A stretch of DNA of 64,000 nucleotides, taken from assembly GCF_046105845.1 (NCBI RefSeq), contig NZ_CP151004.1; one strand, 5' to 3'. This document shows positions 63,448 to 64,000 of this stretch, piece by piece (position 1 is the stretch's first letter; every line of letters starts with the position of its first letter). Below the pieces are notes generated by a model, which searched no databases, was not told where the DNA came from, and saw only the letters and a program-made list of their open reading frames with translations. Source of the DNA: Escherichia coli. Lineage in GTDB: Bacteria > Pseudomonadota > Gammaproteobacteria > Enterobacterales > Enterobacteriaceae. A program made the translations under genes and the position numbers.

Positions 63448-64000
63448 ATGAGCGACCTTGCGAGAGAAATTACACCGGTCAACATTGAGGAAGAGCTGAA
63501 GAGCTCCTATCTGGATTATGCGATGTCGGTCATTGTTGGCCGTGCGCTGCCAGATGTCCGAGATGGCCTGAAACCGGTACACCGTCGCGTACTTTACGCC
63601 ATGAACGTACTAGGCAATGACTGGAACAAAGCCTATAAAAAATCTGCCCGTGTCGTTGGTGACGTAATCGGTAAATACCATCCCCATGGTGACTCGGCGG
63701 TTTATGACACGATCGTCCGTATGGCGCAGCCATTCTCGCTGCGTTACATGCTGGTAGACGGTCAGGGTAACTTCGGTTCCATCGACGGCGACTCTGCGGC
63801 GGCAATGCGTTATACGGAAATCCGTCTGGCGAAAATTGCCCATGAACTGATGGCCGATCTCGAAAAAGAGACGGTCGATTTCGTTGATAACTATGACGGC
63901 ACGGAAAAAATTCCGGACGTCATGCCAACCAAAATTCCTAACCTGCTGGTGAACGGTTCTTCCGGTATCGCCGTAGGTATGGCAACCAACATCCCGCCGC
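63448..64000 (+). CDS. gyrA: DNA gyrase subunit A, N-terminal part (3'-truncated by window edge)
   Basis: [52 protein letters not shown]; absent from ORF track because no stop codon falls in the window. Confidence 0.97.

Follow-up and report, generated by a model that had tools for sequence, protein, structure and literature searches.

The stretch of E. coli DNA analysed here (64,000 nucleotides, hereafter the window) ends inside gyrA, which lies beside the divergent gene ubiG. The features at this end of the window are listed below.

62579-63301, minus strand: ubiG, divergent from gyrA and its conserved neighbour in E. coli (PE164 and K-12 annotation, translation)
63395-63403, plus strand: TGTTATAAT, with a perfect -10 hexamer TATAAT (63398-63403) and a TG at 63395-63396, read from the sequence and identical to K-12
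63432-63436, plus strand: GAGGG, a putative Shine-Dalgarno-like element upstream of the gyrA ATG, proposed from sequence only
63448-64000, plus strand: 5' part of gyrA, codons 1-184 and one further base (translation, PDB match, NCBIfam, annotation)
63646-63765, plus strand: quinolone resistance-determining region, codons Ala67-Gln106, 40 of 40 residues reference
63694-63696, plus strand: codon 83, TCG, Ser, wild type by direct reading, within the motif of residues 78-87
63706-63708, plus strand: codon 87, GAC, Asp, wild type by direct reading, within the same motif
63811-63813, plus strand: codon 122, TAT, Tyr122, by codon reading, with Arg121 at 63808-63810

The remainder of the window carries, in its first part, nuoC-N, yfbM, an M28 peptidase gene, elaD, rbn, elaAB, menFDHBCE, pmrD, arnFETDACB, ais and nudI; then yfaZ, yfaY, rhmRDTA, rpnE, glpCBA, glpTQ, an orphan open reading frame and a LysR regulator with an MFS transporter; and lastly inaA, yfaE, nrdBA, yfaL, ubiG and gyrA. 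An Rfam scan of the whole window at the gathering threshold returned only the nuoG RNA (RF01748, 50.3 bits) at 3327-3369 on the plus strand, just upstream of nuoG, and nothing near gyrA. Several of these genes deserve separate mention. Lipid A modification, with its bearing on polymyxin susceptibility, is represented by pmrD (25993-26259) and the arnBCADTEF operon (26253-33636), both apparently intact. Also apparently intact is glpT (46967-48325; 452 residues, 976 bits to its equivalog), the loss of which gives fosfomycin resistance. A complete L-rhamnonate operon at 37326-41494, made up of an IclR regulator, an MR/MLE-family dehydratase, an MFS transporter and an HpcH-type aldolase, corresponds to rhmR/D/T/A of K-12; the segment containing it (37082-41550) is missing from strain PE164 and is split by an ISEc46 (IS200/IS605) element in strain 1190. 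An M28-family peptidase of 324 residues is encoded intact at 14231-15205 on the minus strand; the PE164 gene is shorter and annotated as frameshifted, some 320 bases of the window (14619-14941) having no counterpart there. Between glpQ and the LysR/MFS pair lies an intact minus-strand open reading frame of 368 codons (49627-50733), for which no Pfam or NCBIfam family was matched; the annotations of PE164 and strain 1190 show a hypothetical protein with a frameshift here, and the related contig L008 has a 356-residue gene called at the same place.

The essential gene gyrA codes for the subunit of DNA gyrase that breaks and rejoins DNA. By direct reading and translation its ATG lies at 63448 and the frame leaves the window at codon 184. 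When this 184-residue fragment was searched against all PDB chains with phmmer, it aligned at 100% identity and without gaps to residues 1-184 of the E. coli structures 3nuh_A (E = 3.7e-120) and 6rks_A; as the alignment is residue for residue, the codon numbering carries no offset. The highest-ranking NCBIfam models were the gyrA equivalogs NF004043 (379.3 bits) and TIGR01063 (375.1 bits), scores to be read against whole-protein cut-offs of 902 and 877 bits, which 184 of 875 residues cannot reach; the parC_Gneg model scored below both, at 293.8 bits. The genomic setting is equally regular. The order of ubiG on the minus strand, a spacer of 146 bases and gyrA on the plus strand is common to the window, K-12 and PE164, and the 701 bases from 63300 to 64000 matched the ubiG-gyrA junction, annotated as gyrA, in 5,425 of 5,426 complete E. 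coli genomes, with an identity of at least 99% in 5,331 of the 5,426. The stretch 63448-64000 is the first 184 codons of E. coli gyrA in its normal chromosomal place beside ubiG, and the gene name given by the initial annotation was borne out by the PDB identity, the model ranking and the ubiG synteny.

The start codon and the bases 63237-63447 upstream are identical to those of K-12 MG1655 gyrA (b2231), and the nearest upstream differences from K-12, at 63212 and 63236, both fall inside ubiG. The hexamer TATAAT at 63398-63403, identical to K-12, is likely to be the -10 element of the gyrA promoter. In published work the TATAAT of the gyrA promoter has been linked with supercoiling sensitivity. 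A consensus scan of 63200-63600 returned neither a complete -35/-10 pair nor a terminator; the lack of a pair fits a weak -35, and the TATAAT has no good -35 partner.

We then read the codon state of the quinolone target region, the limits of which (Ala67-Gln106) were taken from 10.1101/372086. The earlier reading of codon 83 as TCG for serine (63694-63696), codon 87 as GAC for aspartate (63706-63708) and the motif around them was exact, both in the bases and in translation, and the alignment of the translation from 63448 with reference GyrA, which that annotation had named as its own check, left residues 1-184 identical and ruled out a shift in numbering. Its claim that the classical substitutions at 83 and 87 are absent can be widened to all of residues 67-106, together with 51 and 119. 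Codons 51, 67, 81-85, 87, 106, 119, 121 and 122 were checked one by one and are wild type, so that Ala51, Ala119, Arg121 and Tyr122 are all reference residues and no known resistance change is present in the quinolone-target region of the gene. The fragment also includes the catalytic Tyr122 of the breakage-reunion domain, preceded by Arg121; the catalytic role of this tyrosine is established (mentioned in PMC3869551).

In E. coli GyrA the C3/C4 keto-acid of a quinolone chelates Mg2+, and two water ligands hydrogen-bond Ser83 and Asp87 (PMC9917921); PMC3632122 also describes this water-metal ion bridge. Ser83 and Asp87, near the catalytic Tyr122, anchor the bridge in drug-bound cleavage complexes. 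Since both anchors are present and the remainder of 67-106 is reference, fluoroquinolones would be expected to bind normally, and the enzyme is predicted to be fully drug-sensitive. The commonest resistance substitutions are S83L, D87N and D87Y (PMC9917921). Resistance usually begins with S83L, which raises the ciprofloxacin MIC by a median of 24-fold; parC S80I comes next and gyrA D87N/G after it, triple mutants reaching about 1,500-2,000-fold (10.1101/372086). The strain has therefore not taken this usual first step toward target-mediated resistance. Because S83L usually comes first, wild-type gyrA argues against stepwise high-level resistance, and such target-mediated resistance is unlikely in this strain; it can reasonably be inferred that the source strain would be fluoroquinolone-susceptible. 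Overall, we put at roughly 96% the probability that the wild-type gyrA call holds, comprising gene identity, residue numbering and the allele state of residues 1-184, as the best explanation. No evidence contradicts either the identity of the gene or its allele.

Susceptibility could nevertheless be lowered with the gyrA region wild type, through qnr, aac(6')-Ib-cr, oqxAB, qepA, changes in marR/acrR/soxR or rare changes in gyrB. Non-target routes (efflux, Qnr protection and enzymatic modification) raise the MIC by a median of about 15-fold and in combination by up to about 250-fold for ciprofloxacin with neither a gyrA nor a parC mutation (bioRxiv 10.1101/372086). Moreover, qnrB and qnrS show an inverse correlation with mutations in gyrA/parC (10.1101/372086), so that strains with wild-type gyrA are where they tend to be found. 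The window is only 64 kb of one chromosome, and the reach of any phenotype inference is limited by the location of parC, parE, gyrB, marR, acrR, soxR, plasmids and gyrA codons 185-875 outside it. On the other side, the gene content of the 64-kb window holds no such determinant. The MFS transporter at 52193-53383, the one transporter in the window that is uncharacterised, fits generic MFS models and reached no curated resistance-family cut-off, and the transporter with its neighbouring LysR regulator (51163-53383) was rejected as a quinolone efflux determinant on the same ground. We estimate that the majority of E. coli strains with wild-type gyrA also have a wild-type phenotype, which further weighs against such additional determinants, and we consider their action in this strain improbable. 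The value for phenotype prediction attached to the locus by the initial annotation holds for stepwise target resistance, against which the allele does argue, and gives way where non-target routes alone can reach the 250-fold rise cited above.

The window stops at codon 184, and 79% of gyrA (codons 185-875) lies beyond its end. The gene could in principle be damaged, or carry a resistance-relevant change, downstream of that codon, which would leave the call made from the window incomplete, and alterations beyond the classical region are known (PMC3869551). To reach the remainder of the gene by proxy, we used the exact YfaL protein of the window to find contigs in public assemblies. Contig DBAMWG010000001.1 of GCA_044249515.1 (L009) is 100% identical to window positions 48680-64000 (15,321 bases), and DADWIC010000039.1 of GCA_018015415.1 (L011) is 100% identical to the window over 5,433 bases. 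Each encodes a complete GyrA of 875 residues with the same amino acids as K-12, their whole gyrA genes differing from that of K-12 by 38 synonymous nucleotides. The 875-residue protein of L009 carries PF00521 and PF03989; the C-terminal DNA-wrapping domain (Pfam DNA_gyraseA_C) lies beyond the window. These contigs, identical to the window where they overlap it, make a strong case by proxy that the full-length GyrA would be wild type. Given also that gyrA is essential, which speaks against damage, we regard a relevant downstream change as very improbable. The last alternative takes the frame for parC, the paralogue encoding topoisomerase IV subunit A, or gives it another true start, so that residues 83 and 87 would be misnumbered. 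It draws on the same domain and similar motif of ParC and on the 294-bit match of parC models, and is refuted, with negligible doubt, by the alignment to E. coli GyrA, which is 100% identical and free of gaps from residue 1 onward, the higher scores of gyrA models, and the ubiG-gyrA synteny and start codon shared with K-12 b2231.

With the wild-type reading of gyrA in place, we asked how common the allele is among the 5,426 complete E. coli genomes, using 30-base megablast queries that can match only exactly or nearly so. The 30-mer with TCG (Ser83) was found in 2,766 of the 5,426 genomes (51%) and its TTG (S83L) version in 2,295 (42%). An entirely wild-type run of codons 79-88 matched 2,013/5,426 genomes (37%) when codon 85 was GTT and 639/5,426 (12%) when it was GTC, giving 2,652 (49%) for the two versions together. 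Complete genomes oversample resistant clinical clones, and these shares describe the database, not nature. The wild-type amino-acid state of gyrA is ancestral and very common, and as about 49-51% of complete genomes have it, it has little typing power and is a weak typing marker; chance is not a relevant test here, the gene being essential and the allele ancestral. In the same genome collection, one gyrA 5' copy with the S83L 30-mer sits on a plasmid-classed record, which may reflect a misassigned replicon or a duplicated segment.

More information for typing lies in the silent positions. Compared with K-12 at the nucleotide level, the gyrA fragment (plus strand) has five synonymous differences spanning 63573-63780, which form a typing-informative haplotype.

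63573, codon 42: AAG in K-12, AAA in the window, synonymous
63702, codon 85: GTC in K-12, GTT in the window, synonymous
63720, codon 91: CGC in K-12, CGT in the window, synonymous
63747, codon 100: TAT in K-12, TAC in the window, synonymous
63780, codon 111: TCT in K-12, TCC in the window, synonymous

The exact 701-base haplotype (63300-64000) occurs in only three of the 5,426 complete genomes, namely PE164, E105 and F2_81, and strain 1190 and the closely related contig L008 each differ from the window at a single silent site, 63573. On these comparisons, the synonymous nucleotide haplotype discriminates strains better than the amino-acid state does. The literature searched contained no mention of the silent codon-85 polymorphism of gyrA, and PMC3869551 lists no silent changes. 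Here the initial annotation, which had recommended the wild-type codons for strain typing, fares poorly, around half of complete E. coli genomes having the same amino-acid state; it is partly supported as a whole, having overstated the predictive and typing value of the region and left the silent haplotype unmentioned.

The window as a whole matches available complete genomes less closely than its gyrA end does. Over 40000-64000 the best match among the 5,426 complete genomes was 98.2% identical, with the divergence spread along the segment, and for the nuo operon (1-13600) it was 99.3%, shared by four complete genomes including PCN033. Exact matches to the window were found only in draft NCBI assemblies (GCA_044249515.1, GCA_018015415.1) and Logan read assemblies. 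From these matches the source seems to belong to an under-sampled E. coli lineage. A more specific version, in which this is a lineage with no close relative among the 5,426 complete RefSeq genomes and the wild-type gyrA region is the baseline of that poorly sampled lineage, is tentative and to our minds rather doubtful. We also noted that the gyrA 5' haplotype is base-identical to that of three otherwise distant strains, a sharing that may fit recombinational exchange of a gyrA segment or strong conservation of gyrA. Compared with strain 1190, the window has 42 differences between 62 and 63 kb (the 3' end of yfaL, and ubiG) and three between 63 and 64 kb; this sharp drop in divergence at the ubiG/gyrA boundary fits either a recombination boundary or high conservation of gyrA. 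Colinearity of the window with PE164, its best gyrA match, was considered and rejected, as a naive comparison gave 45,537 mismatches and BLAST showed indels and 96-98% identity outside gyrA.

For an annotator the value of the finding is small: the most frequent chromosomal step to fluoroquinolone resistance is absent from this strain. The state of gyrA alone is not enough to type the strain or to decide its drug phenotype. The allele is of the reference type, at a site that ranks among the best-studied drug targets in bacteriology, and this known textbook state brings no new biology.

Set beside known systems, the fragment is closest to gyrA of K-12 MG1655 (b2231, NP_416734.1), with which we group the GyrA structures 3nuh, 6rks and 1ab4. 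It resembles the K-12 gene in amino acids 1-184, the start codon, the upstream bases 63237-63447 and the neighbouring ubiG, and differs from it by the five synonymous substitutions within the first 553 bases. The gyrA genes of PE164 (NZ_CP114128.1), E105 and F2_81 have 100% nucleotide identity over 63300-64000, whereas PE164 outside gyrA is only about 96-98% identical to the window and is without the rhm operon segment 37082-41550. In parC the homologous domain carries an equivalent serine/acidic pair, Ser80/Glu84, which anchors the same drug bridge (PMC3632122); parC is nevertheless a different gene, absent from the window, and its models score lower on the gyrA fragment. Resistant gyrA alleles (S83L with or without D87N/Y/G) concern the same gene and the same codons, and the window differs from them by single bases at 63695, 63706 or 63707. 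By the genetic code, S83L would need only C to T at 63695 (TTG), D87N or D87Y the replacement of G at 63706 by A or T, respectively, and D87G that of A at 63707 by G, which makes these three positions the sites to watch in related isolates.
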